A stretch of 64,000 bases of DNA, from positions 3,132 to 67,131 of the forward strand of contig JAUIAC010000001.1 of assembly GCA_030425545.1 (NCBI GenBank), given 5' to 3'. The position numbers and the translations under genes were made by a program. Under the pieces are notes generated by a model. That model was not told the origin of the DNA and did not search any database. It worked only from the letters and a program-made list of their open reading frames with translations. Of this stretch, positions 20,763 to 53,218 are shown piece after piece (positions within the stretch are counted from its first letter, which is position 1; every line of letters begins with the position of its first letter). The DNA comes from a bacterium. GTDB lineage: Bacteria; Myxococcota_A; UBA9042.

Positions 20763-20931
20763 CGGGTTCTCCAGCGCGAGTGAGGGGTGCCAAACGGTAC
20801 AACATCCTGGCGCGCCGCGAACGATCTGAAGCGCAGCGAGGCCCATTCCACCCGCCGAACAAACTCTCCCCACGACCCCGCCCGGTGGGTTAGGCTGCGG
20901 CGCAGCCCAGCTCGATCCAGGAGACACACGC

Positions 20932-22749
20932 ATGCCATCGACCATCGTTCGACTCCGTGACGCCCTCCGCTCTCGCCCCCGTCATCTACCGATCCTCGTC
21001 GCGTCGCTCGTCGTGCTGGCGACCGCTGGCGCCTGCGGCACGGACGCCGACAGCGGCAGCGGAGCCGACGCGGCCACGGAGAGCGACGCCGCGACGGCCG
21101 GCGCCGACACCGTGATCGCGGGAGAGGACGCGACCTCAAAAGGCGAGGGCACGCCGACCTGGCACGCGACCATCGCGCCGATCATCCAGAGCCGCTGCAG
21201 TTCCTGCCACGTCGAGGGCGGCATCGCCCCCTTCCGCCTCGACCGGGCCGAAGACTGGGAGATCATGGGCAAGCCCGCGGTGTCGGCGATGGAGTCCGGC
21301 CGCATGCCGCCGTGGCCCGCAGACCCGACCTGCGGCTCGTTCGCGCATCGCGGCGACATGCCCAAGGCCGAGATTGCGCAGGTCTCGGCCTGGGTCAACG
21401 GAGGTCGGCCCCTCGGTGATCCGAAGGACGCGCCCAAGCCCAAGGCGACCGCGCCGGTGACCTTCAAGCCCACACACTCGCTGCCCATGCCGGTCGCCTT
21501 CACGCCACCCAAAGACAACCTGGACACGTACCGGTGCTTTCTGCTCGACCTCGACACGTCGAAGGACCGCTTCATCAAGGCGACGCAGGTGGTCCCGGGG
21601 AGCGGCAAGCTGGTGCACCACGTGCTCGTGTACGCCCTGGAGGGAGACCACGTGACCAAGGCCGAGAAGGCCGACAAGGCGGAAGCCGGGCCGGGCTACA
21701 CCTGCTTCGGTGGACCGCTGCCAAACGAGAAGGAGAGCAGCCTGCTCGGGTTCACCACCGGCTTCCCGAACCAGCTCGCCGCGTGGGTGCCCGGGCTGCA
21801 GCCGTCGATCTTGGGCGACGACTACGCCATTCGGGTGAAGAAGGGCAGCCGGGTCGTCATGCAGGTGCACTACAACGTCCCGGCGGGGCAGACCGAAGCC
21901 GACCAGACCAAGCTCGAGCTGGTCGTGACCGACACGCCGCCCAAGCGGGTGCTGATCACGCGGCCGCTGGTGATCCGAGACCTCAACATCCCCGCTGGCG
22001 ACAAGGCCGCGTCGCACAGCGCGACCTACCGCTACTACGGGGACAGCGAGGTGCGCATCCACTCCATGACCGCCCACATGCACCTGCTCGGCTCACGCTT
22101 CGAGTCCGAGGTGCGGCGCAAAGACGGGACCACGGAGTGCGCCCTGCGGATCCCGGAGTGGGACTTCGCCTGGCAGCAGGCCTACCGCCGACCGCACGAC
22201 GATCCGATCGTGTTGAAAGACGGCGACGGCATGATGCTGCGGTGTGTCTACGACAACTCCGTCGCCAACCAGCCGCGGGTGAACGGCAAGCAGGTGACAC
22301 CCAAGAACGTGACCTGGGGCGACGGCACGCTGGACGAGATGTGCCTGCTCTACCTGACCATGAGCGAGCCCTACGAGGTGGGTCTGGCGGCCGACGCGCC
22401 CGCGTGTCAGGGCATCAGCGCGTGTCAGCCTGCGTGCGATCCCAAGAGCCCGACCACCTGCATCTACGACTGCGACAAGACCGAGCCCGTGTGTGGCACG
22501 TGCGCCATTGGTCAGCTGATCTCGTGCGCCGGGCTGGGCTGCGCGGCGTCGATGCTGGGCGCGCAGGACTGCCTGACCAACTGCCTGATCGGCTCGCTGA
22601 TGCTCGACGCCAACCCCGCGTCGTGCTTGACCACGCAGTGCAAGAGCAAGTGGGAGAAGGTGCAGGCCTGCCTCGACCCCAAGATCGCCAAGGGCGACTG
22701 CGACAAGCACCTCAAGACCTGTGGCGTGGCTTTTGGCGCGGGAAAGTAG
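20932..22749 (+). CDS. lipoprotein with N-terminal Planctomycete-type cytochrome c (PSCyt1-like, CxxCH) domain fused to a copper type II ascorbate-dependent monooxygenase-like (PHM/DBH-like) domain and a Cys-rich C-terminal tail
   Basis: Signal peptide with ...LVVLATAGAC G. The segment IAPIIQSRCSSCHVEGGIAPFRLD carries a CxxCH heme motif in a PSCyt1-like context. Cu-site-like motifs are present: VHHVLVY (HH), AHMHLLG (HxH) and GTLDEMCLLY (DEMC Met ligand). The C-terminal approximately 120 aa has about 16 Cys. Confidence 0.65.
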   Translation: MPSTIVRLRDALRSRPRHLPILVASLVVLATAGACGTDADSGSGADAATESDAATAGADTVIAGEDATSKGEGTPTWHATIAPIIQSRCSSCHVEGGIAPFRLDRAEDWEIMGKPAVSAMESGRMPPWPADPTCGSFAHRGDMPKAEIAQVSAWVNGGRPLGDPKDAPKPKATAPVTFKPTHSLPMPVAFTPPKDNLDTYRCFLLDLDTSKDRFIKATQVVPGSGKLVHHVLVYALEGDHVTKAEKADKAEAGPGYTCFGGPLPNEKESSLLGFTTGFPNQLAAWVPGLQPSILGDDYAIRVKKGSRVVMQVHYNVPAGQTEADQTKLELVVTDTPPKRVLITRPLVIRDLNIPAGDKAASHSATYRYYGDSEVRIHSMTAHMHLLGSRFESEVRRKDGTTECALRIPEWDFAWQQAYRRPHDDPIVLKDGDGMMLRCVYDNSVANQPRVNGKQVTPKNVTWGDGTLDEMCLLYLTMSEPYEVGLAADAPACQGISACQPACDPKSPTTCIYDCDKTEPVCGTCAIGQLISCAGLGCAASMLGAQDCLTNCLIGSLMLDANPASCLTTQCKSKWEKVQACLDPKIAKGDCDKHLKTCGVAFGAGK

Positions 22750-29700: not shown

Positions 29701-31317
29701 CTACTCGCAGGTAGCGATGAACACCGGCTGCGTGCGGTCTTTCTTGCACTCGTCGCCGTCGCACTTCAGCGCGACGCCGTTGAGGGCCTCGAGCAGGGCG
29801 GCGTAGGGCAGGTTGGCGTCGACCGCGACCACGATGGACGTGCTCTGGTTGTCCGCCCACTTCTCCAGCCGATCGCCTTCCCCATGGGGCGCGGCGCTCT
29901 GCACGCTGCGCAAGGTGCCGTCGGACGAGAGCTTGCCCGTGTGGACCTGCTTGCCATCGTGATAGACGGCCGGCGTGAAGCCCTTGGCCTGCAGCGCGTC
30001 GCGGCCGACCACCGCGACGGCCTTGCAGGACTTGGTCTTGCCGCCGGGCGCCTTCAGCTTGAAGGGGATGCGCTTGTCCAGGGCCAGCAGCGTCACGGTG
30101 AAGCCCGAGCGACGGTTGCTGTGATCCGCGCGGCGGCGCCCCACGAGGATCACCGTCGGCCACTCCTTGGCGTGCTCCCCGACGATGGTCGCCTCGAGCA
30201 ACGACAGGCCATAGCTCACCGGCACGTCACCCTCAGGGACCAGCAGGATGTTGCTCTGGTTGAAGTTCGACACGGTCGACGCACGGGTGTCCTCCACCAG
30301 CTGGCTGATGCGCTTGGTCAGGGCCTCGTCGGTCTTGGTGAAGTCCGGCGTCCACGGGTTGGCGGCGTCGTTGAGCTTGCGCAGCGCGATGCCCATGAGC
30401 GAGATGCCCTTCTTGGTGACGAAGAGCGCCGCGTTGCCGTTGACCGGCGCGGCCACGGTCGAGCGAATCGGAGGCAGCTTGGGGAACTCCTCCCACTTGG
30501 GCACCGCCTTGATGCGGGCCTGATACCAGGCGATGAGCTGGTCGTTGAAGGCGTTGTAGCTGCTGCTCGGGTACTTCTTCTTGAAGGCCTCGATCATGTC
30601 GATGACCTTCTTGTAGTAGGGGATCATCACCTGCGTGGGCCGCAGCTCCATCGGGATGTCTTTGCAGTAGTCGTTCATCTTCGTGCGGCACATGACGTTG
30701 ATCTCCTCGCGGAAGAGCGAGGTCTTCGGCTCGTAGCCGAAGGCCAACTTCAAGTACGTGAAGAAGTAGGTCACGCGGTCGTCGTCCGCCCCGCGCCCCT
30801 CGCCGAAGAGGTCATGGCGGCGGGCCGACTCAGCCACATGAAAGAAGATCTTGTCGAAGGCCAGATCCTCCTCCCACTTGGTGTCCTTGCTCGCGGCGGC
30901 GGCGAGGCTCAGGTCGCGCCAGTAGTCCTTCGGCGGCATCTTGGCGTTGAAGTAGAACTTCTTCTGCCCCTCGAGCCAGGTGGCGAGGTCGTCGGCCGTG
31001 CCAGCGATCTTGGTGCCGCGTGCGATGACGCCGACCTTCTTGAACTCGGAGCGCGACACGGTGCCGGCCACCTTGCTCATCCACTCCAGGTAGGGGTGGC
31101 CACCGTCCGAGCCTGGCTTGCCGTCCTTGGGCGCGGTGCTGGTCAGGCGCTTGCGACGCTCGAGCATGATCTGCTCCAGCTTGGCCGTGCCCTTCTCCGC
31201 CCGGACCACCTTCTTCTTCTTCTTCGGGCCACAGGCGCTCAGGGGCAGCAGCGTCGCGACGAGCAACAGGGGCAGCAGGCGCGCGGCGCGTGCGACAGAC
31301 GGGTGGTTCTGGGTCAT
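29701..31317 (-). CDS. lipoprotein of unknown function (538 aa), possible ExbD/TolR-like C-terminal fold
   Basis: MTQNHPSVARAARLLPLLLVATLLPLSAC GPKKKKK: signal peptide plus lipobox. Lys-rich mature N-terminus. C-terminal segments ...IVVAVDANLPYAALLEALNGVAL... loosely resemble the ExbD periplasmic domain (weak). Confidence 0.55.
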   Translation of the reverse strand: MTQNHPSVARAARLLPLLLVATLLPLSACGPKKKKKVVRAEKGTAKLEQIMLERRKRLTSTAPKDGKPGSDGGHPYLEWMSKVAGTVSRSEFKKVGVIARGTKIAGTADDLATWLEGQKKFYFNAKMPPKDYWRDLSLAAAASKDTKWEEDLAFDKIFFHVAESARRHDLFGEGRGADDDRVTYFFTYLKLAFGYEPKTSLFREEINVMCRTKMNDYCKDIPMELRPTQVMIPYYKKVIDMIEAFKKKYPSSSYNAFNDQLIAWYQARIKAVPKWEEFPKLPPIRSTVAAPVNGNAALFVTKKGISLMGIALRKLNDAANPWTPDFTKTDEALTKRISQLVEDTRASTVSNFNQSNILLVPEGDVPVSYGLSLLEATIVGEHAKEWPTVILVGRRRADHSNRRSGFTVTLLALDKRIPFKLKAPGGKTKSCKAVAVVGRDALQAKGFTPAVYHDGKQVHTGKLSSDGTLRSVQSAAPHGEGDRLEKWADNQSTSIVVAVDANLPYAALLEALNGVALKCDGDECKKDRTQPVFIATCE

Positions 31318-40724: not shown

Positions 40725-41519
40725 CTACTCCGGAGCGTCGCCACGGAAGCGCGCCGTCATCAGCGCGACGCAGATGCAGGTCACCATCACGGAAGCGCCG
40801 GCGTTGAGCCACACGTCCAGGGCGTCGGCGCTGAACAGGGCGACGTCGGTGTCGGCGCCCATGACCACCCCAGCGGTGGGCCCGGGAGAGAGCAGGCCGA
40901 TGCGCGAGGACAGACCCCCGAGGCCGAGATCGACCAGCACCAGCCAAGCGAGCCCGAGCGCTGCCGCCGGTCGCGCCACGGCGGCCAGGAGCATGAAGAG
41001 CGCCGTGTAACCGGCCGCCGCGAGGACGATGGCCACGAGCAAAAAGGGCAGGTGACCCCAGGGGATCGGCAGCGCGAAGCCCAGCGCCGCGAGCTGAACG
41101 GCAGCCACCAGGGCGACGCCATAGGCGGCGACCACGCAGCTCGTGGCGACGAAGCGTCCGAGCGGCAAAGCGGTGGCGGCGCGCGGGCGGAGCAGGAAGG
41201 CCGAGAGCGCGCCGTGGTCGGCGTCGGCGCGGAGCGCGCGGGTGCCGAAGCCGAGGGCGATGAGGCCGATGGCGCGCACCCCCAACGAGCCGACGAAGGC
41301 CAAGAGCGCGCGCGGCTCCCCAGCGGAGGCCCGGGCGACGCCGACCGCTGCGGCGGCGACGAGGGCCACCAGCAACAGCCCAGGCCAGAGCTGCTTGAGG
41401 CGCAGCGTGCGCCGCAGGTGGAGCTCAGCGTGCAACCACAGCGCGGCGCCGACGCTGGGCGGATCGGGGAGCGCCTGGGGCGGCATCGGGTCTGCGCGGT
41501 GGTTGGGCAGGACGCTCAT
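40725..41519 (-). CDS. ABC-2 type transporter permease (6 predicted TM segments)
   Basis: 264 aa hydrophobic protein. Its start overlaps the stop of the upstream ATPase gene (ATGA). Confidence 0.5.
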   Translation of the reverse strand: MSVLPNHRADPMPPQALPDPPSVGAALWLHAELHLRRTLRLKQLWPGLLLVALVAAAAVGVARASAGEPRALLAFVGSLGVRAIGLIALGFGTRALRADADHGALSAFLLRPRAATALPLGRFVATSCVVAAYGVALVAAVQLAALGFALPIPWGHLPFLLVAIVLAAAGYTALFMLLAAVARPAAALGLAWLVLVDLGLGGLSSRIGLLSPGPTAGVVMGADTDVALFSADALDVWLNAGASVMVTCICVALMTARFRGDAPE

Positions 41520-42442
41520 CGCATCTCCTCCCCAAGCGCGGCGAAGAGGCTGACCAGGTCGTCCCCCTCGGTCTCGATCTCGGTCACGCGCGCCCCCGAC
41601 GCGAGGATGGCGGGCGGCAGCGCCGCGTAGATCCCACCCAAGCCGTCGGCCTGGGCGATGAGCGCGCCGGGCTCAAAGCGCAGCACGCGCACGCCCGCGC
41701 GCTCCAGCAGCGCCCGCGCCAGCCCGTTGGGATCCGACGTGTGCAGCCGAACGGCGGTGCCGCGGGTCTGCAGCAAGGCACGAATCTCGGCCTGGCTGCC
41801 AGCGGCCACGACGCGCCCGCGGTAGAGCAGCACCAGCCGCTCCGAGACCGCCTCCACCTCTTCGAGGATGTGGCTGCTCATGACCACACACGCGCCGCGG
41901 TCCGCCGCCTCGCGCATCAGCCCCGCGATCTCGAGCCGCCACACCGGGTCGAGCGCGTTGAGCGGCTCGTCGAGCAAGACCAGGTCCGCGGGCAACGCGA
42001 GCGCCTGCGCCAGCTTCACCCGCTGACGCTGCCCGCGAGACAGGGTCGCGATGGGCGCGTCGACCTTCTCCGCCAGTCCGAGCCGACGCAGCACCACGTC
42101 GGCGCGACCCTCGGCGTCATCGAGGCCGAGCCCCGCGCACCGAAGCAACATGGCGAGGAACTGCGCCGGCGTGTCCTCGACCGGCAGCTGGTCGCCGTCC
42201 GACGACATGGCGATGCGATTGGCGAGGTCCGGGTGGCGTCGCTCGAGCCCTCCTTTCCACCGGACCGAGCCGCTGGTCGGCCGAATCAACCCGGCCGCGA
42301 GACGCAGAAAGGTGGTCTTGCCAGCGCCGTTGGGGCCGAGCAGCCCGACGAGGCCCGGCTGGAGCCGCAGCGTCACGTCGAGCAGCGCCACCCTGGCGCC
42401 AAAGCGGCGCGTGCAGCGCTCGAGCTGGAGGACGTCGTTCAT
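41516..42442 (-). CDS. ABC transporter ATP-binding protein
   Basis: The start at MNDVLQLERCTRRFG (ATG 42442) sits inside a longer ORF. Walker A GPNGAGKTT, signature LSRGQRQRV, Walker B LVLLDEP. Confidence 0.85.
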   Translation of the reverse strand: MNDVLQLERCTRRFGARVALLDVTLRLQPGLVGLLGPNGAGKTTFLRLAAGLIRPTSGSVRWKGGLERRHPDLANRIAMSSDGDQLPVEDTPAQFLAMLLRCAGLGLDDAEGRADVVLRRLGLAEKVDAPIATLSRGQRQRVKLAQALALPADLVLLDEPLNALDPVWRLEIAGLMREAADRGACVVMSSHILEEVEAVSERLVLLYRGRVVAAGSQAEIRALLQTRGTAVRLHTSDPNGLARALLERAGVRVLRFEPGALIAQADGLGGIYAALPPAILASGARVTEIETEGDDLVSLFAALGEEMR

Positions 42443-43359
42443 GAGCGCCCCCTGCCCAGCGGTGGGTCCTTCATGAAGCGGTCGAGCAGCAGCCAGCTCA
42501 CCAGCGCCAGGAGCGCCCAGAGCCCGAGGCCGGCCGCCGCGTCGAGCAAGACAAAGTCGGGCGTCGAGGCGGTGTCGACCCAACGCGTCAGCAGCGTCCA
42601 CGCCGCGCTGAGGCCGTGGTGCAGGTCCACAGACCGGGCGTAGCTGTTGCGCCCCCAGATCAGCTGCCCCACCCAGCTCATGCCCACGCTGCCCAGCACC
42701 AGCACGCCGTAGTACAGCGGCACCCGCCCGGGGCTCCTCGCCAGCACGCTGCCCGCGAGCCCGACCACCGTGCTCAGCAGCGCCGCGACCAGAGACGCCA
42801 CGGTCACGGCGGCGAAGACCACCGGCCAGAAGAGCCAGGACGCCGCGAGCGGCCCTGCGCCGCCCGGCTGGAGGCCCAGGCCGACCAGGAGCACCAGCGC
42901 CAAGCCGAGCAGCGGCAGGCCGACGCCGGCGGAGGCCAGGAGCGTGCCCGCGATGACGCGGCCAAAGAGGTAGTGGCGCCTGCGCACGGGACGCGAGAAG
43001 TAGAGCAGGAGGGCGCCGAAGCGCAGATCACGCGCCAGGGTCGGCGCGACGAGCCCAGCCTGCAGCAGCAGCGCCCACGCCGCGTTGATGCCGAAGACGA
43101 GGCCCAGGGTCTGCAAGGCAAAGGCGGCCTCCTCTGCGGCCGGAACGGCGAAGGCGGTGATCTGAAAGCGCGCCACGGCGTAGACCGTCACCCCAAGCGC
43201 CGGTAGGGCGAAGGCCAACCACAAGAGCGTGCGCAGCAGCCCGCGACGCAGGTCGCGCGCGAACACGGAGACCAGCCCGCCCAGGCGCTGCGCCTCGGAC
43301 ACGGTCCCGCCGTGCCACGCCGAGAACCCCGCCGGTCGGACGAAGGGCGACTCGCTCAT
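42439..43359 (-). CDS. ABC-2 type transporter permease
   Basis: The start at MSESPFVRPAGF (ATG 43359) sits inside a longer ORF. Multi-TM protein. ATGA overlap with the upstream ATPase gene. Confidence 0.5.
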   Translation of the reverse strand: MSESPFVRPAGFSAWHGGTVSEAQRLGGLVSVFARDLRRGLLRTLLWLAFALPALGVTVYAVARFQITAFAVPAAEEAAFALQTLGLVFGINAAWALLLQAGLVAPTLARDLRFGALLLYFSRPVRRRHYLFGRVIAGTLLASAGVGLPLLGLALVLLVGLGLQPGGAGPLAASWLFWPVVFAAVTVASLVAALLSTVVGLAGSVLARSPGRVPLYYGVLVLGSVGMSWVGQLIWGRNSYARSVDLHHGLSAAWTLLTRWVDTASTPDFVLLDAAAGLGLWALLALVSWLLLDRFMKDPPLGRGRS

Positions 43360-44346
43360 GCCCCCCCCGCCTTGCGTGTAGGATCGTCCAGGCGCAGGTG
43401 ACGGACAAAGGCCTCGGCCATGCCTTCCTGCTCCAAGCGAAAGTTGCGGATGCCCGCGCCGGCGTCGGCCGCGGCCCGCCACAGGGGTGTGGGGTCGCCT
43501 TCCGTCAGCTGGATGCGGATTCGGTCGCCGTCAATGTCGACGGGCACCTGCGCCGCCCGCAGCGCCGCCGCCACAGCAGCCACGTCGCCCACCAGGTCCA
43601 CAACATGGTGGGCGCCGGTCGCCGCGGGTGGCACACCCGGCACGCCGCTGGGCCGGACCGCACGATGGCCGGACCCGGCGCGAAAGCGCGACATGGGGCC
43701 GACGAAGCCGGTCTGCCCCCGCGAGAGCAGCACGACGTGGTCGCACACCTCCTCGACATCGCCCAGCACATGGGTGGAGAGCAGCACGGAGGTGCCCGCG
43801 CGTCCGACCTCGGCGATGAGCGCGAGCATCTCGGCGCGTCCCGGGGGGTCGAGGCCAGCGGTGGGCTCGTCGAGGAAGACCAGCCGCGGCCCGTGCGCGA
43901 GGGCCATGGCGAGGCGCAGCCGCTGTCGCATGCCCAGGGAGAAGCCAGACGCGGCCCGGTAGCGGGCCTCGCTCAAGCCCACCAGATCCAGCATCTCGTG
44001 CGCCCGCGCGAACGCGTCGGTGTGGTTGAGCCCGCACAGCCGGGCCGCGTGCACGACCTGCTCGATGCCGTTGAGCCCGGGAAAGAGGCTGTCGTCCTCT
44101 GGCATGAAGCCGATCTCGGCGCGGGCCTCCATGGCCGACTCGGGCATGGGCCACCCGAGCACCTCGACGGTCCCCGTGTCGGCGTTGTCGAGCCCGAGCA
44201 GGAGGCGGAAGAGCGTCGACTTGCCGGCACCGTTGGGTCCGAGGAGGCCGACGACGCCCGCTGGGATGGCGACGGTGATGCCCCGAAGCGCGGTCGACTC
44301 GGCGAAGGCCTTGTGCACGCCGTCGAGCACCGCCACCGGCGGCGCA
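43356..44346 (-). CDS. ABC transporter ATP-binding protein (probable GTG start)
   Basis: Walker A GPNGAGKST, signature FSLGMRQRL, Walker B LVFLDEP. A GTG at 44346 is preceded by GAGGG. The 1183 aa ORF in the track is an upstream over-extension. Confidence 0.75.
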
Positions 44347-44828: not shown

Positions 44829-45161
44829 ATGAAGGTCTCGCACCTGATCACCGCTGGCGCACTCGTCCTCGGCGGCCTCACCCTCACCGGCTGCGGTGGC
44901 AAGAAGAAGGCAGCCGCTGCCCCGGCGCCCACGCCCGCGGCAGCACCGGCCTACCCGAGCTGCAGCACGGACGCGCACTGCGCGTCGCACGGCCAGGTCT
45001 GCGTCGGCGGCTCCTGCGTGCAGTGCCGTGACCACGGCCAGTGCGCCTCGATGGGCCCGTGCGGTCGCTGCGAGGCGAACAAGTGCACCAAGGTCGCCGG
45101 CTGCTGCGCCACCGACGCCGACTGCAACGGCGGTCGCTGCCGCGGCGGCAAGTGCCGCTAA
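44829..45161 (+). CDS. small Cys-rich lipoprotein (110 aa)
   Basis: ATG 44829 with AGGAGA RBS. MKVSHLITAGALVLGGLTLTGC GGKKK gives the lipobox. Cys-rich module CSTDAHCASHGQVCVGGSCVQCRDHGQC... Confidence 0.6.
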   Translation: MKVSHLITAGALVLGGLTLTGCGGKKKAAAAPAPTPAAAPAYPSCSTDAHCASHGQVCVGGSCVQCRDHGQCASMGPCGRCEANKCTKVAGCCATDADCNGGRCRGGKCR

Positions 45162-45428
45162 TCGCTCGGTGAAGGTGTCCGCACGGACGCCGACGTGGGC
45201 GCTGGCCGTCCACACACTGACCGCGTGACTGATGCCACGCCGGCGCGACCCCGCCACCCTGGGGTCCCGTCGGCGTGGCTGTCGCGTACCTAGCCCGCTG
45301 CGCTGTCGGCCGACAGGTGCAGCCCGCTTGAGACCAAGCGCCCGGCCATCGGGCGTTGGCGAGGCCCCGCCCTCGCCGCCACGGAGCCCAGCATGACCTC
45401 CCCCCTTGCCAGCCGAGAGCGCCGGTTC

Positions 45429-46190
45429 ATGTCCATTGCGCGGTCCGCGCTCGTGGCGGCCACGCTGCTGCTCGGTGCCTGTGGCCCCACGTACCCGAAC
45501 TGCGACGGCGACAGCCACTGCAAGGACAAGGGCGAGTACTGCTTGGAGAAGAAGTGCGTCCAGTGCCGGCTGACGTCGCACTGCGCCAACGCGAGCACCG
45601 ACGCGTGTGTCGCCTGCGAGAAAGGGCAGTGCGTCCGCAAAGCGGGCTGCTGCACCAACAACCTCGACTGCCCCAGCGGCAAGAAGTGCAGCGCCAACGC
45701 CTGCGTGAACCAGTGCGCGAGCGACGCCGACTGTGTCGGCGGCAAGACCTGCAACGAGCAGGGCGCCTGCGTCAGCCCCGACGCGGCCGGCTGCAGCTCC
45801 GACGGAGACTGCGGTGGCTCGCTGAAGTGCAAAGAGGGCAAGTGCGTCAACAAGGACGGGGCCTGCGAGCTCATCCCGGTGAACTTCGCCTTCAACCGCG
45901 CCAACCTGAGCCGCTCGGCCCAGAGCTCGATCTCGTCGAACGCGCGTTGCCTCAAGGAGCGCAAGGTGACGAGCGTGACGGTGGAAGGACACTGCGACGA
46001 GCGCGGCACCGACGCCTACAACCTGGAGCTCGGCAACCGCCGCGCCCGCGCCGTGAAGCGCTACCTCCAGCGCGTGGCGCGCAAGCTGAAGATCCGCACC
46101 GTGTCGTACGGCAAGGCCCGTCCGGAGTGCAACGACTCGTCCGAGAGCTGCTGGTCGCGCAACCGCCGCGCTGAGTTCGTGGCGCGTTGA
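45429..46190 (+). CDS. OmpA/Pal-like peptidoglycan-associated lipoprotein with an N-terminal Cys-rich module
   Basis: MSIARSALVAATLLLGAC GPTY gives the lipobox (an alternative ATG lies at 45393). About 130 aa Cys-rich region paralogous to the preceding small lipoprotein. C-terminal OmpA domain ...VNFAFNRANLS...GHCDERGTDAYNLELGNRRARAVKRYL...SYGKARP...NRRAEFV. Confidence 0.8.
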   Translation: MSIARSALVAATLLLGACGPTYPNCDGDSHCKDKGEYCLEKKCVQCRLTSHCANASTDACVACEKGQCVRKAGCCTNNLDCPSGKKCSANACVNQCASDADCVGGKTCNEQGACVSPDAAGCSSDGDCGGSLKCKEGKCVNKDGACELIPVNFAFNRANLSRSAQSSISSNARCLKERKVTSVTVEGHCDERGTDAYNLELGNRRARAVKRYLQRVARKLKIRTVSYGKARPECNDSSESCWSRNRRAEFVAR

Positions 46191-47734
46191 GCCAGGTCGT
46201 GCCACGCGCGGCGCTGCTGCGCGCCATCGTCGTGACAGTCGGCGTCCTGACAGCTGGGTGCGCCACCAACAGTCGCGTCGCGCGGCTCGAGGCGCGCATC
46301 GTGCAGCTCGAGAAGGATCGGGCCGCGCTGAAGCTCGCCTACGCCCGCGATCAGAAGCGCATGACGCGGCTCCGCGACGAGATCGAGAGCAGCTCGAGCT
46401 TCCTCCGTCGCAACGGCGCGCAGATGACCTCGCGCCTCGACGACCTCGAAGACGCCGGCCGGCGGCAGAAGGGGGCCAACGAGGTCCTCGCCCACCGGCT
46501 GTCCACTGTGAGCCGCCAGAGCAAGGCCGACCACGCCGCGCTGCAGGTGACCGGCCGCAAGCTGGACCAGCTGGTGGCGGACCTGCGAGACCGGGCGGGG
46601 ATCTCAATTCTGGCGCTGCCGCGCGACCTGCCTGAGCACGCAGACGACTGGGTGAAGCTGGCCGAAGACCGGTTCGGGTGGGGCGAGGTGCGCGTCGCTG
46701 ACGCCATCGCGAAGGAGTGCCGCAAGCGTTTTCAGGGGACGAAGCAGGCCGGTCGCTGCGGGCTGATCCAGGGGCGCATCGCCTACGAGGAGCACCGCTT
46801 CGGCGACGCCGTGAAGACCTTTCGCGCGGTGCACGACGAGCTCGACGGCAAGCGCCTTCCCGAGGTCGCGACGGCGTTGATGGGGATCGCGTCGACCTTC
46901 GAGGCACAGGGCAAGTGCAAGCAGGCCCGCGACGTCCTCGGCTACGTGAAGCAGCTGATGAAGAAGGGCGCGCAGGCGAGCGCTGCGCAGGCTGCGCTCA
47001 AGTCACAGGGTACGCGCTGCAAGGCCGGGACCGTGCGGCTGCCGGCGCGCACGTCGGGGAAGCTGAAGGCGGCTGCAGCGGCGAAGAAGGCCGCTGAGGA
47101 GCAGGCCCGCCGGGACGCCGAAGCCAAGGCCCAGGCGGAGGCAGAGGCCAAGCGCAAGGCCGAAGAAGAGGCCATTCGCAAGGCACGCGCCGCGCGGGAC
47201 GCCAAGGCCAAGGCAGAGGCAGAGGCAGAGGCGAAGGAGGCCGCCGAGCGCAAGGCAAAGGAGGACGCGGCCCGCGCGGCCAAGGATGCCGCTGCCAAGG
47301 ACGCCACTGCCAAGGACGCCACTGCCAAGGACGCCACTGCCAAGGACGCCACTGCCAAGGACGCCACTGCCAAGGACGCCACTGCCAAGGACGCCGGCAA
47401 GCCGGGCGCCACCGACGCGTCGGCCGCGCCTGCCAGCAAGGCGCCGGCGAAGGCCAGCGACGACGGCGCGGCCAAGCCAGCGAGCGACGGGGCCGACAGC
47501 ACGAAGGCGGCGAGCGATGCCAAGGCGGGGGCCGACGCCAAGGCGGAGGCAGACGCCCCGGCTGGGGCGGAGACCAAAGGGGGCGCCAAGGCCGACGCAA
47601 CGCCGGCCAAGGGCGGCCAGCCGGACGCCAAGGGGGCCGCCAAGCCCGCGCCGAAGGCCAAGGCCGCGCCGGCCGCCAAGTCCGCGCCGCCAGCGGCCAA
47701 GTCAGCCCCCAAGGCCGCCGACAAGGCGGGCTGA
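46187..47734 (+). CDS. CpoB/YbgF-like coiled-coil plus TPR lipoprotein with Ala/Lys/Glu/Asp-rich repetitive C-terminal half
   Basis: TTG 46187 overlaps the upstream stop. ...VVTVGVLTAGC ATN gives the lipobox. N-terminal coiled coil (RLEARIVQLEKDRAALK...), central TPR-like helices, then an approximately 220 aa low-complexity tail including (KDATA)6. Its position directly after a Pal-like gene mirrors tol-pal-cpoB. Confidence 0.5.
   Translation: MSQVVPRAALLRAIVVTVGVLTAGCATNSRVARLEARIVQLEKDRAALKLAYARDQKRMTRLRDEIESSSSFLRRNGAQMTSRLDDLEDAGRRQKGANEVLAHRLSTVSRQSKADHAALQVTGRKLDQLVADLRDRAGISILALPRDLPEHADDWVKLAEDRFGWGEVRVADAIAKECRKRFQGTKQAGRCGLIQGRIAYEEHRFGDAVKTFRAVHDELDGKRLPEVATALMGIASTFEAQGKCKQARDVLGYVKQLMKKGAQASAAQAALKSQGTRCKAGTVRLPARTSGKLKAAAAAKKAAEEQARRDAEAKAQAEAEAKRKAEEEAIRKARAARDAKAKAEAEAEAKEAAERKAKEDAARAAKDAAAKDATAKDATAKDATAKDATAKDATAKDATAKDAGKPGATDASAAPASKAPAKASDDGAAKPASDGADSTKAASDAKAGADAKAEADAPAGAETKGGAKADATPAKGGQPDAKGAAKPAPKAKAAPAAKSAPPAAKSAPKAADKAG
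47290..47395. repeat. 6-7 tandem copies of 15-bp unit GCCAAGGACGCCACT (encodes KDATA repeats)
   Basis: Direct repeats visible on the + strand from 47290 to 47395 inside the CpoB-like gene. Confidence 0.85.
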
Positions 47735-47735
47735 C

Positions 47736-49658
47736 ATGCCCGAGCCTGTCTCCTATCCAGGGCGCTGGAACGTGCTCGTGGTCGGCGGCGGTCATGCGGG
47801 CTGCGAGGCGGCCCTCGCTGCGGCGCGCCTGGGCTGCGACGTGCTCCTGGTCACCCAGAGCGTCGACCGAATCGGGTGGATGAGCTGCAACCCCGCGGTC
47901 GGCGGCGTAGGCAAGTCGCACCTGGTCGCGGAGATCGACGCCCTCGGTGGAGAGATGGCGCGCAACACCGACCGCGCGGGCGTCCACTACAAGTGGCTCA
48001 ACCGCTCACGTGGACCGGCGGTCCAGGCGCTGCGGGTCCAGTGCGACAAGCTCGCCTATGCGACCGCCATGCGGGGCGTGGTCGAGTCGCAGCCGCGGCT
48101 CCAGGTCAAGCAGGGGACGGTGGCTCGGCTGTGGCTCGAGGACGGCCGGGTGGTCGGGGTCGTCACGTCGCACGGAGTCGCGTTCGCCGCGGACACCGTG
48201 GTGCTCACCGCCGGGACCTTCCTCGCCGCGGTCTGTCACACGGGCGACGCGCAGGAGGCGGGGGGCCGCGCGGGCGAGGGCGCGGCCAACGACCTGGGCG
48301 CGCAGCTCCGTGAGGTCGGCGTGCGCACGCGCCGCCACAAGACCGGCACGTGTCCGCGGCTCGACGGACGCACCGTCGACTGGGACCAGCTCCGCGTCGA
48401 CCCCGGTGAGCGCGATCCGGCGCCCCTGTCCCGCTACGGCGGCGCCCCGCAGCTCCGGCAGATGGACTGCCACGCGGCGCGCACCAACGCCAAGACCCAC
48501 GCCCTGATCGCGGCGGCCATGCACCGCTCGCCCATGGCCGCGGGTCAGATCACTGGCCGTCCTCCGCGCTACTGCCCGAGCATCGAAGACAAGGTCAAGC
48601 GCTTCCCCCAGCGCGACACGCACACCCTCTTCCTCGAGCGGGAGGGGTGGAGCACCGGGGAGGTGTACCTGTCCGGGCTGTCGACCTCGCTCCCGCCGGA
48701 GGTGCAGGTGGACGTGGTGCGGTCCATCGACGGCTTGGGGCGCGCCGAGCTGGTGCGCTTTGGCTACGCGGTGGAGTACGACACGATCGACCCGACACAG
48801 CTCAACCGTTCCTTGGGCTTGCCGCAGCTGCCAGGCCTCTTTTTCGCCGGCCAGGTCAACGGCACGAGCGGCTATGAAGAGGCGGCGGCGCAGGGCCTGG
48901 TCGCTGGCCTCGCCGCCGTCGCCTGGGCGCGGGACACCGCGGCCCCCGAGTGGCCGCGCCACGAGAGCTACATCGGCGTGCTGGTGGACGACCTGGTGAC
49001 GCGGGGCGGCGACGAGCCCTACCGCATGTTCACGAGCCGCGCCGAACATCGCCTGCGGCTGCGCGTGGGCAACGCCGACCTGCGCTTGACCCCCACCGGC
49101 CGAGCGCTGGGGCTGGTGTCCGACGCCGACTTCGCGCGCTTTGAGCGGCGACGCGCGCAGCTGCGGCAGGGCGCGACGGCCTTGGCGGCAGCCCAGCTGA
49201 CACCGACCGCGCAGACCCGCGCGCTTGTCGAGGCGACCGGTACTGGGACGATCCGGGGCCCAATGACGGTGGCCGAGCTGCTGCGTCGTCCGCACCTCGA
49301 CTGGCGCGGCGCGCGCGAGCTGCTGCCGGTGGCCGTGCGCGAGCTGCCGGACGACGTCGTCGACGAGCTGGTGACGGGCCTGCGCTACGCCGGCTACGAG
49401 CAGCGGGCCGACGAGCGCGCGGCGCGATCCGCGAGAGCCGAGCATGTCCGGCTGGCGCCCGACCTCGACTATGCGGAGGTGGGCGGGCTCTCCACGGAGG
49501 CCGTCGAGAAGCTGAGCCAGGTGCGACCCGAGACCTTGGGCCAGGCGGGCCGGATCCCAGGGCTGACCGCGGGCGCGATGGACGCGCTGCTCATCTATCT
49601 GGAGGGGCGCCGGCGCTCACGGCAGACGACGACGCCGCGGGGCGCGTCGAACACCTAG
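47736..49658 (+). CDS. mnmG: tRNA uridine-5-carboxymethylaminomethyl modification enzyme MnmG (GidA)
   Basis: The start at MPEPVSYPGRWNVLVVGGGHAGCEAALAAARLG (FAD-binding GGGHAG) sits inside a longer ORF. Conserved MnmG blocks follow (...CNPAVGGVGKSHL..., ...PRYCPSIEDKV...). About 640 aa. Confidence 0.9.
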   Translation: MPEPVSYPGRWNVLVVGGGHAGCEAALAAARLGCDVLLVTQSVDRIGWMSCNPAVGGVGKSHLVAEIDALGGEMARNTDRAGVHYKWLNRSRGPAVQALRVQCDKLAYATAMRGVVESQPRLQVKQGTVARLWLEDGRVVGVVTSHGVAFAADTVVLTAGTFLAAVCHTGDAQEAGGRAGEGAANDLGAQLREVGVRTRRHKTGTCPRLDGRTVDWDQLRVDPGERDPAPLSRYGGAPQLRQMDCHAARTNAKTHALIAAAMHRSPMAAGQITGRPPRYCPSIEDKVKRFPQRDTHTLFLEREGWSTGEVYLSGLSTSLPPEVQVDVVRSIDGLGRAELVRFGYAVEYDTIDPTQLNRSLGLPQLPGLFFAGQVNGTSGYEEAAAQGLVAGLAAVAWARDTAAPEWPRHESYIGVLVDDLVTRGGDEPYRMFTSRAEHRLRLRVGNADLRLTPTGRALGLVSDADFARFERRRAQLRQGATALAAAQLTPTAQTRALVEATGTGTIRGPMTVAELLRRPHLDWRGARELLPVAVRELPDDVVDELVTGLRYAGYEQRADERAARSARAEHVRLAPDLDYAEVGGLSTEAVEKLSQVRPETLGQAGRIPGLTAGAMDALLIYLEGRRRSRQTTTPRGASNT

Positions 49659-49692: not shown

Positions 49693-51141
49693 CTACCGAC
49701 CGCGACGGCGACCACGACGGCCCCTGCGGCGCTTCTTCTTCGGCGGCGGGGCGGCGGCCTTCTTCAGCAGGTCGGCGTACTTGTCTTCCAACGCCTGGGA
49801 CGCGAAACGGGTCGAGAGCGCGAGGCTGTAGCGCTCCTTGCAGAGCTTGGTGTCCCCAGCCTTGCAGGCGGTGTCGCCGTCGAGCTCCAACACCCCCGCG
49901 ATGGCCTTCAACGCGGCGTCGGCGTCCGCCCGATAGACGGACTCCTTGGGGATCAGCTGGTGCTGTCGAATCGCCTCGCCGTAGGTCTTGGCGGCGAAGG
50001 CGGCCTCGGCTTTGACGAAGCGCGCGCCCGCCTTCTTCTCCGCCGTGATCCGGTTGAGGGCCTTCGTCGGCTTGCTCTCGGTGGGATCGAGTCGACGCGC
50101 CTCTTTGTAGGCTCGCTCCGCCTTGTCCCACTGCCGACCGTTCATGGCCTCGCGCCCCTTCTCCAGCAGCTCGTCGTACTCCTTGAGGCGCTTGGCGCGC
50201 TTGGCCTCGAGCGCCGCGGCCTTGGCCTTCATGTCTGCCGCGCCCTCGCCCTCGTCGCGCTGGGCCTCGCTGGCCGAGATGGCAGGCGAGATCCACCTGT
50301 CGTAGGCGAAGCCGACGATGACGACGAGCCCCGTGATCGCCAGCACAATGACAGCCACGGCGGCGACCTGGGGCAGCATCGAGGAGCGCTCGGGTGGCTG
50401 TTGCTGCTCGTAGTAGTCGGGAAAGGCGTCCCCATAGGAGCTGATGGGCGCGGCCGGCCGGAACCCGGAGGCGCTCGCCGCATGCGGCGACGGTGCGGGC
50501 TCCTGCCACGGCTCAGGCACGGGCGCCTCGGTCTCTCCCTCCACCTGAAAGACAAAGCCCACCGTGCCAAAGCGCACCCGGTCGCCGTGGCGCAGGTCCT
50601 GCACGTCGATGCGGCGCTCGTTGACGTAGGTGCCGTTGGAGCTCCGCAGGTCCTCGACCACCACGCGGCCGTCGTCGTCCTGGGTGATCTTGGTGTGGAT
50701 ACGCGACACGGAGGGGTCGTTGATGACCAGCGTACAGTCTTTGCCGCGGCCGATCAGCGTCGTCGCCCGGTTCAGCTCGAAGGCCTCCGCGCCCCCGTGG
50801 ACGGGCACCAGGTGGGCGTAGGTGCTCGATCCCATCGGCCGCGCAAAGGCAGCGCCCTCGATGTGCAGGTAGAAGTCGCCGATGCGCACCTGTGCGCTGC
50901 GCGGCAGCTCGGTGACGTTGTAGATCCGCTTGCCGTTGAGCCAGATGCCATTGGCGGCGTTGAGATCCTCGATGTAGCAGCGCCCCTCGACGGTGAAGAG
51001 GCGGGCGTGCCGGCGAGAGACGTTGTCCGCCGCGAGGACGATGTCGCAGGACTGGCTGCGGCCGATGACGAACTCACCATCTTCAAACGAGTACTCGTCG
51101 ACGATCGCGCCGTACTTGTCCTCGATGATGAGCGTGAACAT
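49693..51141 (-). CDS. membrane-anchored protein with two N-terminal FHA domains and a C-terminal TPR-like domain
   Basis: Start MFTLIIEDKYG (ATG 51141). FHA 1 ...FVIGRSQSCDIVLAADNVSRRHARL...EDLNAANGIWLNG.... FHA 2 ...TLIGRGKDCTLVINDPSVSRIHTKI...DLRSSNGTYVNERRI.... One TM segment (AAVAVIVLAITGLVVIVGFAY). C-terminal helical domain and polybasic tail KKKRRRGRRGRRRGR. Confidence 0.75.
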   Translation of the reverse strand: MFTLIIEDKYGAIVDEYSFEDGEFVIGRSQSCDIVLAADNVSRRHARLFTVEGRCYIEDLNAANGIWLNGKRIYNVTELPRSAQVRIGDFYLHIEGAAFARPMGSSTYAHLVPVHGGAEAFELNRATTLIGRGKDCTLVINDPSVSRIHTKITQDDDGRVVVEDLRSSNGTYVNERRIDVQDLRHGDRVRFGTVGFVFQVEGETEAPVPEPWQEPAPSPHAASASGFRPAAPISSYGDAFPDYYEQQQPPERSSMLPQVAAVAVIVLAITGLVVIVGFAYDRWISPAISASEAQRDEGEGAADMKAKAAALEAKRAKRLKEYDELLEKGREAMNGRQWDKAERAYKEARRLDPTESKPTKALNRITAEKKAGARFVKAEAAFAAKTYGEAIRQHQLIPKESVYRADADAALKAIAGVLELDGDTACKAGDTKLCKERYSLALSTRFASQALEDKYADLLKKAAAPPPKKKRRRGRRGRRRGR

Positions 51142-51148
51142 GGGCTTC

Positions 51149-53218
51149 CTAGGCCTTGAGGTCGACCGCACGTAGGTCAGCGCCCTCGAGCGTCACCTCC
51201 ACGATGCGATCCAGGACTGCGCCGCCGTCCACGATGGAGAAGACACCGAGCACGTCGAGGGCCGCGACGGTGCGGGAGGCCGCGACCGCCATGGGCACAC
51301 CAGCGTAGCGGACCGCGTGCGCGTTGAGCGCGCGCTGCATGGCCTCCTCAGCGCTGCGGGCGTGGAGGAAGCCGAGCCAGGGCGCGATGCCGTCGCAGGC
51401 GTGGTCGATGAGACCGATGAGCTGCGCCGCGCCGCACTCCCCCAAGAGGATCCGGTCCGGCCGCAGCATGCGGGCCACGTGCAGCGCCTCGTCGCCCACC
51501 GCCGTGTCGAGGCGGATCACCTGCGGCTGCGACAGGTGCAGCCGCACACCTTGCTCCGTGACGACGATGCGCTCGGTGTCGGGGACCTCGCGCGCCAGCG
51601 CGTTGAGCACGGTGCGGCGGCCCGACCCCGCGGCGCCGACCAGCGCGATGCTCCGGCCCGCGAGCATGAGGTCTCGGAGCTGACCCGCGGCGTCCTCTGT
51701 GACCACGCCACGCCCCACCAGGTCGTCGAGCGAGGGCGCGTCACCCCGGGGCTTTCGAATCAACACCACCGGGCCGTTGGGGCACAGCGGGGGCCACGCC
51801 ACCCGCACCGTGGTGCCGTCCGCCAGGGTTCCGTCGACCCAGTGTCCAGCGCTGTCCGGCGCGCCGCTGGCTCGCACCAGGCGCTCCGCCGCCGACGAGA
51901 GCGCGGCCTGCCCGCTGAACCGGACCTCCGTCTCCTGGCGCTCGCTGTCCCGGTGGACCCAGATCTGCTCAGGGCCGTTGACCTCGATGGTCTCGACCGC
52001 GGCGTCGTCGAGCAGCGTCTCGAGCGGGCCGAGCCCGACCAGCTCGTAGATCAGATCGCGCTTGAGCCGGTCGAGGTCGAGCGTGTCCGGCAGGGAGGCG
52101 TGCTGACCGTCGACAAAGGCCACGACGCGCGCCTCCATCTCTGCCCACTCGGAGTCGCTCAGCTGTGCAGCGTCCCCGGTGAACGACCCGGCCAGCTCTT
52201 CACTGGCCTGCGTGTGGAGCAGGGCGAGCGCGTCGTAGTGCCCGCTAGGAGGGACAAAGGCGTCGCCCTCGGCGGTGCTCATCACCGGCATCGGGGCGGC
52301 GACGTCTGGCATGGACAGGTCGAGAGACAGATCCGGCGCCTGAACGCCCGAGACCGCGGCAGCGGCGGCGTCGAGGGCCGCGCCGAGCCCGTCGACCGGT
52401 CCAGTCATGCGATCGTCCACCGCCTCCATGGCCGCGACAGGGTCTGCCGCGACGACCGCCGCGTCGCCCACCATCGGAGCGGCCGCCTCACGGCGGGCCG
52501 CGATCTCGGCCATGGCGTCGCTCGCGGCGTCACCGAGCTGCGACAGGGTCGACTCGTCGAGCGCGTCCAAGGCCTCAAGCGGGGCGTCGGCCTCGCCGTC
52601 CAGGCCTGGACCGCCCTGGTCGGCCACAGGGGCGGCGAAGGGGTCGTCCGCACCGAAGGCGCCGCTGGCGAGGGCGTCGTCTGCGCTAGCGGCGTCGAAG
52701 GCCTCCGCGGCGAAGGCGTCGTCTCCAAAGGCGTCGTCGCCGAACGCGTCGGCGGAGAATTCGTCGGCGCCGAAGCCCGACGCGTCGAAGTCCGCGCCAC
52801 CGTCGGCCGACTGCGCCGGCTGGCTTGACGAGGAGACCGCGCGGCCACTCTCAGACGTCGCTGCGTCGAGGCCCAGGTCGTCGCCCAGCGGCGCCGCGTC
52901 GTCTGCTGCAGTGCCGTCGTTGGGCTGACCCAGGTCGAAGAACTGCATCACAAAGTCGCCCAGATAGGCCTTGTCTTCCGACCCCACCTCGACCGGCGTC
53001 GTGATGCGATGCCCGTTGACGTAGGTGCCGTTGGTGCTGCCGAGATCTTCGACCACGAACCGGGGGCCGTGCACGCGCACCAGGGCGTGACGCTTCGAGA
53101 TGTTCTGCTTGGGCAAGATGACGTCGTTGCCCTTGACCCGACCGATCATGATCTCGGGCTTGTCGAAGTGGAAGGTGTACACCTGCCCACTCTTCTCACG
53201 GATGGTGACGCTGAACAT
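51149..53218 (-). CDS. FHA domain protein fused to a CpaF/TadA (VirB11-like) secretion-ATPase fold with degenerate catalytic motifs
   Basis: N-terminal FHA (...IMIGRVKGNDVILPKQNISKRHALV...DLGSTNGTYVNGHRI...). Long acidic linker (about 200 aa, D/A/E-rich). C-terminal approximately 330 aa aligns by eye to CpaF. The Walker A position reads GAAGSGRRT instead of GSGKTT. The Walker B/Glu position reads IVVTEQGVRL instead of IEDAAEL. The conserved RMRPDRIIVGE block is retained (MLRPDRILLGE). Confidence 0.7.
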   Translation of the reverse strand: MFSVTIREKSGQVYTFHFDKPEIMIGRVKGNDVILPKQNISKRHALVRVHGPRFVVEDLGSTNGTYVNGHRITTPVEVGSEDKAYLGDFVMQFFDLGQPNDGTAADDAAPLGDDLGLDAATSESGRAVSSSSQPAQSADGGADFDASGFGADEFSADAFGDDAFGDDAFAAEAFDAASADDALASGAFGADDPFAAPVADQGGPGLDGEADAPLEALDALDESTLSQLGDAASDAMAEIAARREAAAPMVGDAAVVAADPVAAMEAVDDRMTGPVDGLGAALDAAAAAVSGVQAPDLSLDLSMPDVAAPMPVMSTAEGDAFVPPSGHYDALALLHTQASEELAGSFTGDAAQLSDSEWAEMEARVVAFVDGQHASLPDTLDLDRLKRDLIYELVGLGPLETLLDDAAVETIEVNGPEQIWVHRDSERQETEVRFSGQAALSSAAERLVRASGAPDSAGHWVDGTLADGTTVRVAWPPLCPNGPVVLIRKPRGDAPSLDDLVGRGVVTEDAAGQLRDLMLAGRSIALVGAAGSGRRTVLNALAREVPDTERIVVTEQGVRLHLSQPQVIRLDTAVGDEALHVARMLRPDRILLGECGAAQLIGLIDHACDGIAPWLGFLHARSAEEAMQRALNAHAVRYAGVPMAVAASRTVAALDVLGVFSIVDGGAVLDRIVEVTLEGADLRAVDLKA

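Follow-up and report, generated by a model that had tools for sequence, protein, structure and literature searches.

Results

Three consecutive lipoprotein genes

The DNA analysed here, a 64,000-nucleotide stretch (positions 3,132 to 67,131 of contig JAUIAC010000001.1, assembly GCA_030425545.1, from a bacterium of the Myxococcota_A lineage UBA9042; hereafter the window), has a GC content of about 70%, and its genes were mapped as open reading frames (ORFs) filtered by GC content at the third codon position (GC3). Three consecutive ORFs with high GC3 on the + strand, spanning 44829-47734 and termed g1, g2 and g3, each carry a lipobox, as an initial annotation of the sequence had proposed. The central gene, g2 (45393..46190, +), encodes a 265-residue homologue of the peptidoglycan-associated lipoprotein Pal in which a stalk of cysteine-rich repeats appears to take the place of the usual linker. 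It is preceded by g1 (44829..45161, +), which encodes a free-standing lipoprotein of 110 residues built from the same type of repeat, and followed by g3 (46187..47734, +), which encodes a 515-residue protein predicted to be a divergent lipoprotein of the CpoB/YbgF type.

A Pal homologue with a cysteine-repeat stalk

The C-terminal part of the g2 product is an OmpA-like peptidoglycan-binding domain (45864..46187, +), and the Pal-like character ascribed to it in the initial annotation is supported in several ways. First, the domain matches Pfam PF00691 (E=5e-17), is 41% identical to residues 71-172 of E. coli Pal (E=1e-23) and contains the motifs GHCDERGT..YN..LG.RRA and NRRAEF. Next, TIGR02802 Pal_lipo is the top NCBIfam model in all 94 sequences of the family (best E 1.5e-39), and the protein of the window scores 108.5 bits against it, 33 bits above the next model. 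Finally, in the AlphaFold2 (AF2) model, which has a mean predicted local distance difference test score (pLDDT) of 92.6 over the whole protein, the top Foldseek matches of the domain are the peptidoglycan-binding structures of Pal and OprF, with target TM-scores (TMt) of 0.76-0.83. The conserved Asp and Arg of OmpA-like domains function in binding peptidoglycan and its diaminopimelic acid (DAP), and the corresponding D190 and R205 of the GH.DE...RRA motif are invariant across the 94 sequences, as is the lipid-bearing Cys30 (45480-45482) of the lipobox LLLGAC. Judged by its sequence, g2 is a Pal orthologue, a lipid-anchored OmpA-like peptidoglycan binder.

The start codon of g2 had been placed at 45429, which is possible and would give a 253-residue precursor with an unchanged mature protein; the ATG at 45393 is the likelier start, since it has the better Shine-Dalgarno sequence (GGAG-N7-ATG), aligns with the start of the orthologue at locus L082 of a close relative and is used in a public gene call, P0001 (NCBI/Logan assembly), which is the exact g2 product on record. 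The closest named relatives are labelled "MAG: Myxococcales bacterium", "Myxococcota bacterium" or "Deltaproteobacteria bacterium".

The stalk occupies residues 31-157 of the mature protein (45483..45863, +). The lipid Cys is followed by G-P-T-Y-P-N-C and then by five repeats (residues 36-157; 45498-45563, 45564-45647, 45648-45713, 45714-45791 and 45792-45863), of which the first three are paralogous to those of g1. There are 23 Cys in residues 37-158, 22 of them within the five repeats, and each Cys column of the stalk is retained in at least 90% of the 94 sequences, if not in all. Each repeat is predicted to fold into a short helix and a β-hairpin, with a pLDDT of 88-97 over most of the repeats and 81 in the lowest block, and structural comparison found no solved structure resembling the repeat.

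The initial annotation had described this part of the protein as a cysteine-knot module. The cysteine module is real but not new, since the putative knot belongs to an already named type of myxobacterial Cys-rich repeat, TIGR04201/DUF7107. TIGR04201 Myxo_Cys_RPT matches 61 of the 94 family members at E<0.01 (best E 6.5e-14), which at the family level makes the stalk a module of this type. Pfam DUF7107 (PF23416) matches 55 members (best E 4.5e-10), and smaller numbers match Dumpy DPY (16; 1.3e-05), Dickkopf_N (15; 7.5e-11) and the EB module (5; 1.3e-06). The g2 product of the window itself stays below the curated cut-offs, with 15.8 bits (E=0.012) against the 25 bits of TIGR04201 and 16.1 bits against the 24.6 bits of DUF7107. 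The model TIGR04201 derives from the tandem Cys-rich repeats of Myxococcus xanthus TraA, for which disulfide bonding and a role as a rigid stalk have been proposed (Pathak et al. 2012, PMC3325183).

That the repeats stand in for an ordinary linker within one orthologous lineage is most clearly indicated by L078, a Pal-like protein from Anaeromyxobacteraceae, which has the same unusual Cys residues in the OmpA domain, including that of GHCDE, but a Pro/Ala-rich linker at the position of the repeats. We accordingly read the five tandem four-Cys repeats as a replacement, in this clade, of the flexible segment that connects the anchor of Pal to its domain. A second, giant Cys-repeat protein is encoded elsewhere in the window (14214-20945, -), where an ORF of 2243 residues contains five Dicty_CTDC (PF00526) Cys-rich repeats (E=1.2e-23), a eukaryote-type repeat which Pathak et al. 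compared with TIGR04201 (PMC3325183).

A free-standing paralogue of the stalk module

The g1 gene has an AGGAG sequence 9 nucleotides before its ATG and encodes a signal peptide that ends with the lipobox LTLTGC, with the lipid Cys22 at 44892-44894. The mature protein begins with a linker of Ala, Pro and Lys, GGKKKAAAAPAPTPAAAPA, which leads into P-A-Y-P-S-C (44946-44963), an instance of a P-x-Y-P-x-C motif, and then into three four-Cys repeats of about 20-26 residues (44958-45023, 45024-45101 and 45102-45158). Beyond the lipid Cys there are 14 Cys, spaced C-x5-C-x6-C-x4-C-x2-C-x5-C-x5-C-x2-C-x4-C-x5-CC-x5-C-x4-C-x4-C, and the description of the first gene as a Cys-rich lipoprotein of 110 residues therefore stands. 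In the AF2 model residues 41-50 have a pLDDT of about 80 and the part from residue 51 onwards one of 88-92, and every Cys is invariant in a ten-member alignment of the close family, the homologues of which are 56-81% identical.

That the N-terminus of g2 repeats the Cys pattern of g1, as had been noted from the sequence, is evident from a pairwise BLASTP alignment, which is significant (E=8e-16, 36% identity) and collinear, bringing together the lipobox, the P-x-Y-P-x-C motif and repeats 1-3. In an alignment of 48 sequences, 10 free-standing and 38 from the family of Cys-repeat Pal proteins (hereafter Cys-Pal), neither the 14 module Cys nor the Y-P of the motif varies. Among 1.84 billion representatives, a profile built on the free-standing family matches only 103 proteins at E<=0.001 and recovers Cys-Pal proteins with E-values down to 1.5e-16. 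Among the 103 are proteins of about 100-135 residues, many of them carrying a lipobox and a linker of Lys, Ala and Pro, Cys-Pal proteins of about 250-280 residues, a few tandem-double lipoproteins of 220-230 residues with two three-repeat units (P0170, P0176 and P0207) and two giants, P0190 (1140 residues) and P0239 (1332 residues, 12 matched stretches).

The free-standing modules with lipobox and linker form at least 24 clusters, some far from pal. The g1 module shares 90% identity with other free modules, as against about 41% with that of the adjacent g2 and at most 54% with any Pal module. Since it is closer to the free modules than to any Pal module, g1 would have arisen long ago and been maintained as a paralogue, and would not be a recent duplicate. 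On these comparisons g1 is taken to be an older paralogue, consisting of a lipid anchor, a linker and the first three repeats without the peptidoglycan-binding domain. The free family as a whole was also considered as a monophyletic group, but a neighbour-joining tree of 70-residue segments did not resolve it as such, separating clearly only the close subfamily.

The 231-bp region between g1 and g2 (45162..45392, +) is predicted to form very stable GC-rich hairpins (-135 kcal/mol, z=-4.55 against shuffled sequences), including a long one near 45234-45280, and apart from the Shine-Dalgarno sequence and ATG it is not conserved in L082. A scan of the region for consensus promoters and terminators was negative, as expected at 70% GC, and a search of it against Rfam gave no match. 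The region may be a terminator lacking a T-tract or an attenuator, and, given the stable hairpins and the lack of conservation in L082, g1 may form a transcription unit of its own.

A divergent CpoB-like lipoprotein

The g3 reading frame starts either at TTG 46187, overlapping the stop codon of g2 by 4 nucleotides, or at GTG 46199, after a gap of 8 nucleotides. Its lipobox VLTAGC, with Cys25 at 46259-46261, is followed by a predicted coiled coil (about 46271-46570) and a putative TPR-like (tetratricopeptide repeat) domain (about 46637-47041), with the invariant family motif LxADLRDRAGIxILALPxxLP between the two (46571-46636). In an alignment of 27 family members the lipobox, a coiled coil of about 100 residues, the ADLRDRAGI.ILALP motif and a helical domain with conserved Cys are shared, and the tails vary widely in length.

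The initial annotation had identified the third gene as a coiled-coil/TPR, CpoB-like protein, which is upheld by the family as a whole and by the position after pal, but not by the g3 product of the window alone, the matches of which are all sub-threshold, with E-values of 0.003-0.007: TolA_bind_tri PF16331 (E=0.0035; 17.8 bits against a cut-off of 30.1), TPR_12 (0.0055) and TPR_21 (0.0069). Against TIGR02795 it has no match. Within the family, TolA_bind_tri matches 19 of the 27 members (best E 6.7e-5), TPR_21 matches 21, and there are members that match TIGR02795 at about 1e-6. The g3 family profile aligns by hhalign with E. coli CpoB alone at 91% probability over 227 collinear columns, and end to end with a profile of E. 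coli CpoB and the CpoB-like proteins of the distant loci L003, L084 and L085 at 99.8% (E=1e-27, 249 columns); as the latter profile of four members is dominated by Myxococcota, the 91% is to be taken as the independent figure. The invariant motif falls in a gap or low-confidence region of the alignment with E. coli CpoB and has no counterpart there. Searched against the Protein Data Bank (PDB), the g3 family profile reaches E=0.03 with 6g5s, the TPR domain of CpoB, and E=0.27 with 2xdj, the coiled coil of YbgF, and the proteins encoded just downstream of Cys-Pal in L003, L084 and L085 match TIGR02795 tol_pal_ybgF at 1e-17 to 1e-18. The profile alignments together with the domain matches of the family thus identify the g3 product as a putative lipid-anchored CpoB of divergent sequence, in which a predicted coiled coil precedes a TPR-like domain.

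The last 230 residues of g3 (residues 286-515; 47042..47731, +) form a low-complexity, Ala/Lys/Asp-rich tail with 40% Ala, 17% Lys and a net charge of +10, in which no Pfam domain was found. A relationship to domain II of TolA was considered and rejected, as the similarity to E. coli TolA is not significant (E=0.34). Within the tail lies a 15-bp tandem array encoding (AKDAT)n (47279..47395, +), for which Tandem Repeats Finder (TRF) gives 7.8 copies with 98% matches, six of the copies being perfect; the KDATA repeat pointed out in the initial annotation is therefore real. Among homologues, which are 289-448 residues long, the tail is mostly absent or different, and about half of the 30 that were found are shorter than 320 residues and lack a long tail. 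The protein of L082, 78% identical, has ADKA[AT] repeated 10.9 times and KKPGA repeated 12.3 times in place of the KDATA array, and other homologues have pentapeptide runs of the AAEKA or DKxxD type, so the tail evidently changes quickly between species. L001, a short-read Logan contig with an identical locus, ends inside the KDATA array at about window position 47321, and the copy number of the array taken from any short-read assembly is therefore to be read with caution.

Genomic context and distribution

The gene order at the locus is a four-gene ABC (ATP-binding cassette) transporter on the - strand, g1-g2-g3-mnmG on the + strand and two forkhead-associated (FHA) domain genes on the - strand. 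The ATG of mnmG (gidA; 47736..49658, +) lies 1 nucleotide past the g3 stop, and the order pal-cpoB-mnmG is kept in L082 and in L083, the locus of another close relative; its tight spacing suggests that g2, g3 and mnmG are probably co-transcribed. The Cys-Pal/CpoB pair is present in L082, L083, L084, L085 and L003, with an overlap or a gap of less than 90 bp. A free module is found upstream of pal in L082 and L083 and in none of the distant L084, L085 and L003.

Proteins that align with at least 92% of g2 at 38-100% identity fall into at least 120 clusters (90% identity), which indicates that the Cys-Pal architecture is widespread, and a contig profile scan returned at least three full-length Cys-Pal loci among the matches listed. 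A variety of uncultured Myxococcota have a CpoB gene directly after that of Cys-Pal. Of the idea that the locus encodes a modular envelope system specific to this lineage, what holds is that a free module beside pal is confined to close relatives; Cys-Pal itself extends across many uncultured Myxococcota. Databases label these proteins only "OmpA family protein" or "peptidoglycan-associated lipoprotein", and in the searchable literature no paper was found on a Cys-rich Pal or on DUF7107. The components are thus known families, namely Pal, CpoB and a TIGR04201-type repeat, in a combination that is common across metagenomes and for which no description was found in the searchable literature.

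The ABC transporter (40725-44339, -), divergent from g1, comprises two ATPases and two permeases, one permease without a Pfam match and the other with only a sub-threshold ABC-2 match; the same arrangement adjoins g1 in L001 and L082. The region 49693-53218 (-) encodes a double-FHA protein and then an FHA-T2SSE ATPase, a pair kept beside mnmG in L082. High-GC3 ORFs of 427, 1293 and 538 residues at 6583-7866 (+), 8191-12072 (+) and 29701-31317 (-) have no Pfam match at E<=1e-4. The window also contains lgt, encoding prolipoprotein diacylglyceryl transferase (PF01790, E=4.6e-61; 1877-2812, +), so the lipoprotein maturation pathway needed by g1-g3 is present.

Discussion

With some reserve, we consider it probable that in this uncultured member of Myxococcota the g1-g3 locus encodes the outer-membrane components of a split Tol-Pal system, with pal-cpoB followed by mnmG, in which Pal carries a disulfide-stiffened spacer. 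A survey from 2025 reports distal, or split, pal-cpoB clusters and describes CpoB as a lipoprotein of the outer membrane in most non-proteobacteria (PMC12204202). The stalk would serve as a rigid spacer, the role that has been proposed for this type of repeat in the TraA stalk. The 22 Cys of the stalk would be oxidised in the periplasm to form about 11 disulfides, C158 would probably pair with C186 of the OmpA domain, and the linker would thereby become a stiff rod that keeps the OmpA domain and the outer membrane a set distance apart. The product of g1, a stalk-only outer-membrane lipoprotein without a wall anchor, might share the partner of the Pal stalk or act as a non-tethering competitor, and the tail of CpoB, rich in Ala and Lys and encoded in part by the 15-bp array, would be a fast-evolving extension that varies in length. 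In two related loci DsbA-like genes lie just upstream of Cys-Pal, as large proteins with multiple DsbA/thioredoxin domains in L083 (2770-7189, -) and as a DsbA-like protein with a CPHC motif in L003 (6277-7170, +); these neighbours are compatible with the oxidation of a Pal with 27 Cys, though weakly so.

Several observations weigh against this interpretation. Neither the 64-kb window nor the 20-kb neighbourhoods of L082-L085 and L003 yielded a tolQ, tolR, tolA or tolB gene, which makes a link to the Tol motor putative, and the 108.5 bits of g2 against Pal_lipo fall short of the equivalog cut-off of 125.35. The number of Cys beyond the lipid Cys in the mature protein, 27, is odd, and the disulfides, rigidity and length of the stalk are all inferred. 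Furthermore, two distant free modules, on contigs of about 1.1-1.4 kb, are followed by unrelated genes and not by pal, so that a functional connection between g1 and Pal is only suggested.

A further alternative bears on the stalk itself, as the Cys repeats could be a protein-, glycan- or metal-binding module instead of a passive spacer, with g1 and Pal recognising a common partner or each other. Such a role would account for the retention of the three repeats and the P-x-Y-P-x-C motif as a unit in free, fused and tandem-double proteins and for the conservation of non-Cys positions such as D28, E36 and Y22, and there is a weak similarity to ligand-binding Cys modules of eukaryotes (Dickkopf_N, EB and DPY). 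We nevertheless regard it as rather unlikely, since no partner was identified and no solved binding domain matches the structure, structural disulfide repeats typically have the spacing C-x5-C-x5/6-C-x4-C seen here, and repeats of the same type have been proposed to act as a stalk in TraA (PMC3325183).

The main rival to the split Tol-Pal reading as a whole is that g2 encodes a Tol-independent anchor of the OmpA family, like YiaD, PA1041, LptF or YfiB, that g3 is a structural coiled-coil/TPR lipoprotein unrelated to Tol, and that the true pal lies elsewhere together with tolQRAB. The score of g2 under the Pal_lipo cut-off, the lack of tol genes nearby and the sub-threshold CpoB-domain matches of g3 in the window all fit this possibility. 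It is distinctly unlikely, however, given that Pal_lipo leads the next model by 33 bits and ranks first in 94 of the 94 family members, that the conserved downstream neighbour is CpoB-like, reaching 1e-17 to 1e-18 against TIGR02795 in distant relatives, and that distal pal-cpoB clusters are documented (PMC12204202). As for g1, its correspondence to the N-terminal three repeats of Pal and its position just upstream of pal could be those of a functionless remnant of a partial pal duplication, but this is very improbable for a gene with its own Shine-Dalgarno sequence, lipobox and distinctive linker, with every Cys invariant in ten homologues at 56-81% identity, with free-standing relatives that make up at least 24 clusters and in some cases lie far from pal, and with about 41% identity to the module of its neighbour against 90% to other free modules.

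Pal is well known from textbooks as an envelope tether, with a linker that is mostly regarded as a passive, disordered leash. A folded, Cys-locked variant would offer a handle on whether the stiffness and length of the linker matter for outer-membrane tethering, and on how the width of the periplasm is controlled in bacteria that probably lack Lpp, with the stalk-only paralogue as a second handle. Starting from the split Tol-Pal reading, one may go further and tentatively propose that in a large clade of uncultured Myxococcota Pal serves as a molecular ruler, a disulfide-locked rod of five repeats that would set the distance between the outer membrane and peptidoglycan, as Lpp does in enterobacteria, with g1 and the variable-tailed CpoB tuning it or competing with it. 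If true, this would amount to a lineage-specific means of setting the geometry of the periplasm with a repeat fold for which no structure has been solved. With component families that are known and organisms that are uncultured, the finding is of modest practical impact. The TraA-type Cys repeat is hereby extended from cell-surface receptors to a periplasmic housekeeping protein, and the repeat is confidently predicted (pLDDT >90) and yet resembles no solved structure.

Comparison with known systems

The locus can be compared with four known systems. The closest is Pal (TIGR02802; E. coli Pal, PDB 1oap and 2hqs), with which g2 shares the N-terminal lipobox, the OmpA domain at 41% identity with its GH.DERGT..YN..LG.RRA and NRR motifs, and a cpoB gene after it. 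In contrast to E. coli Pal, g2 has a 127-residue stalk of five four-Cys repeats instead of a flexible linker of about 40 residues, its OmpA domain has five extra Cys, the gene is not adjacent to tolB, and the protein scores under the equivalog cut-off. The g3 product resembles CpoB/YbgF (TIGR02795, PF16331; PDB 2xdj and 6g5s) in its location directly downstream of pal, its predicted N-terminal coiled coil and its putative C-terminal TPR-like domain, the two proteins being collinear over about 230-250 columns. It differs from E. coli CpoB in being lipid-anchored, as are most non-proteobacterial CpoB proteins (PMC12204202), and in having the invariant ADLRDRAGI.ILALP motif, four conserved Cys and a 230-residue low-complexity tail with a pentapeptide array; taken alone, the g3 product of the window is under every curated cut-off.

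The stalk is of the kind represented by TIGR04201, from the TraA stalk, and DUF7107, which are Cys repeats of about 22 residues found in secreted myxobacterial proteins and proposed to form rigid stalks. While the repeats of TraA lie under a PA14 head at the cell surface, those of g2 are placed between a lipid anchor and an OmpA domain and would be periplasmic. Finally, Lpp, or Braun's lipoprotein, forms a trimeric coiled coil that is attached covalently to peptidoglycan and has no sequence or fold relationship to g2; its likeness to the Cys-Pal stalk would be a functional analogy only, that of a stiff element of an outer-membrane lipoprotein which could set the distance between the membrane and peptidoglycan.

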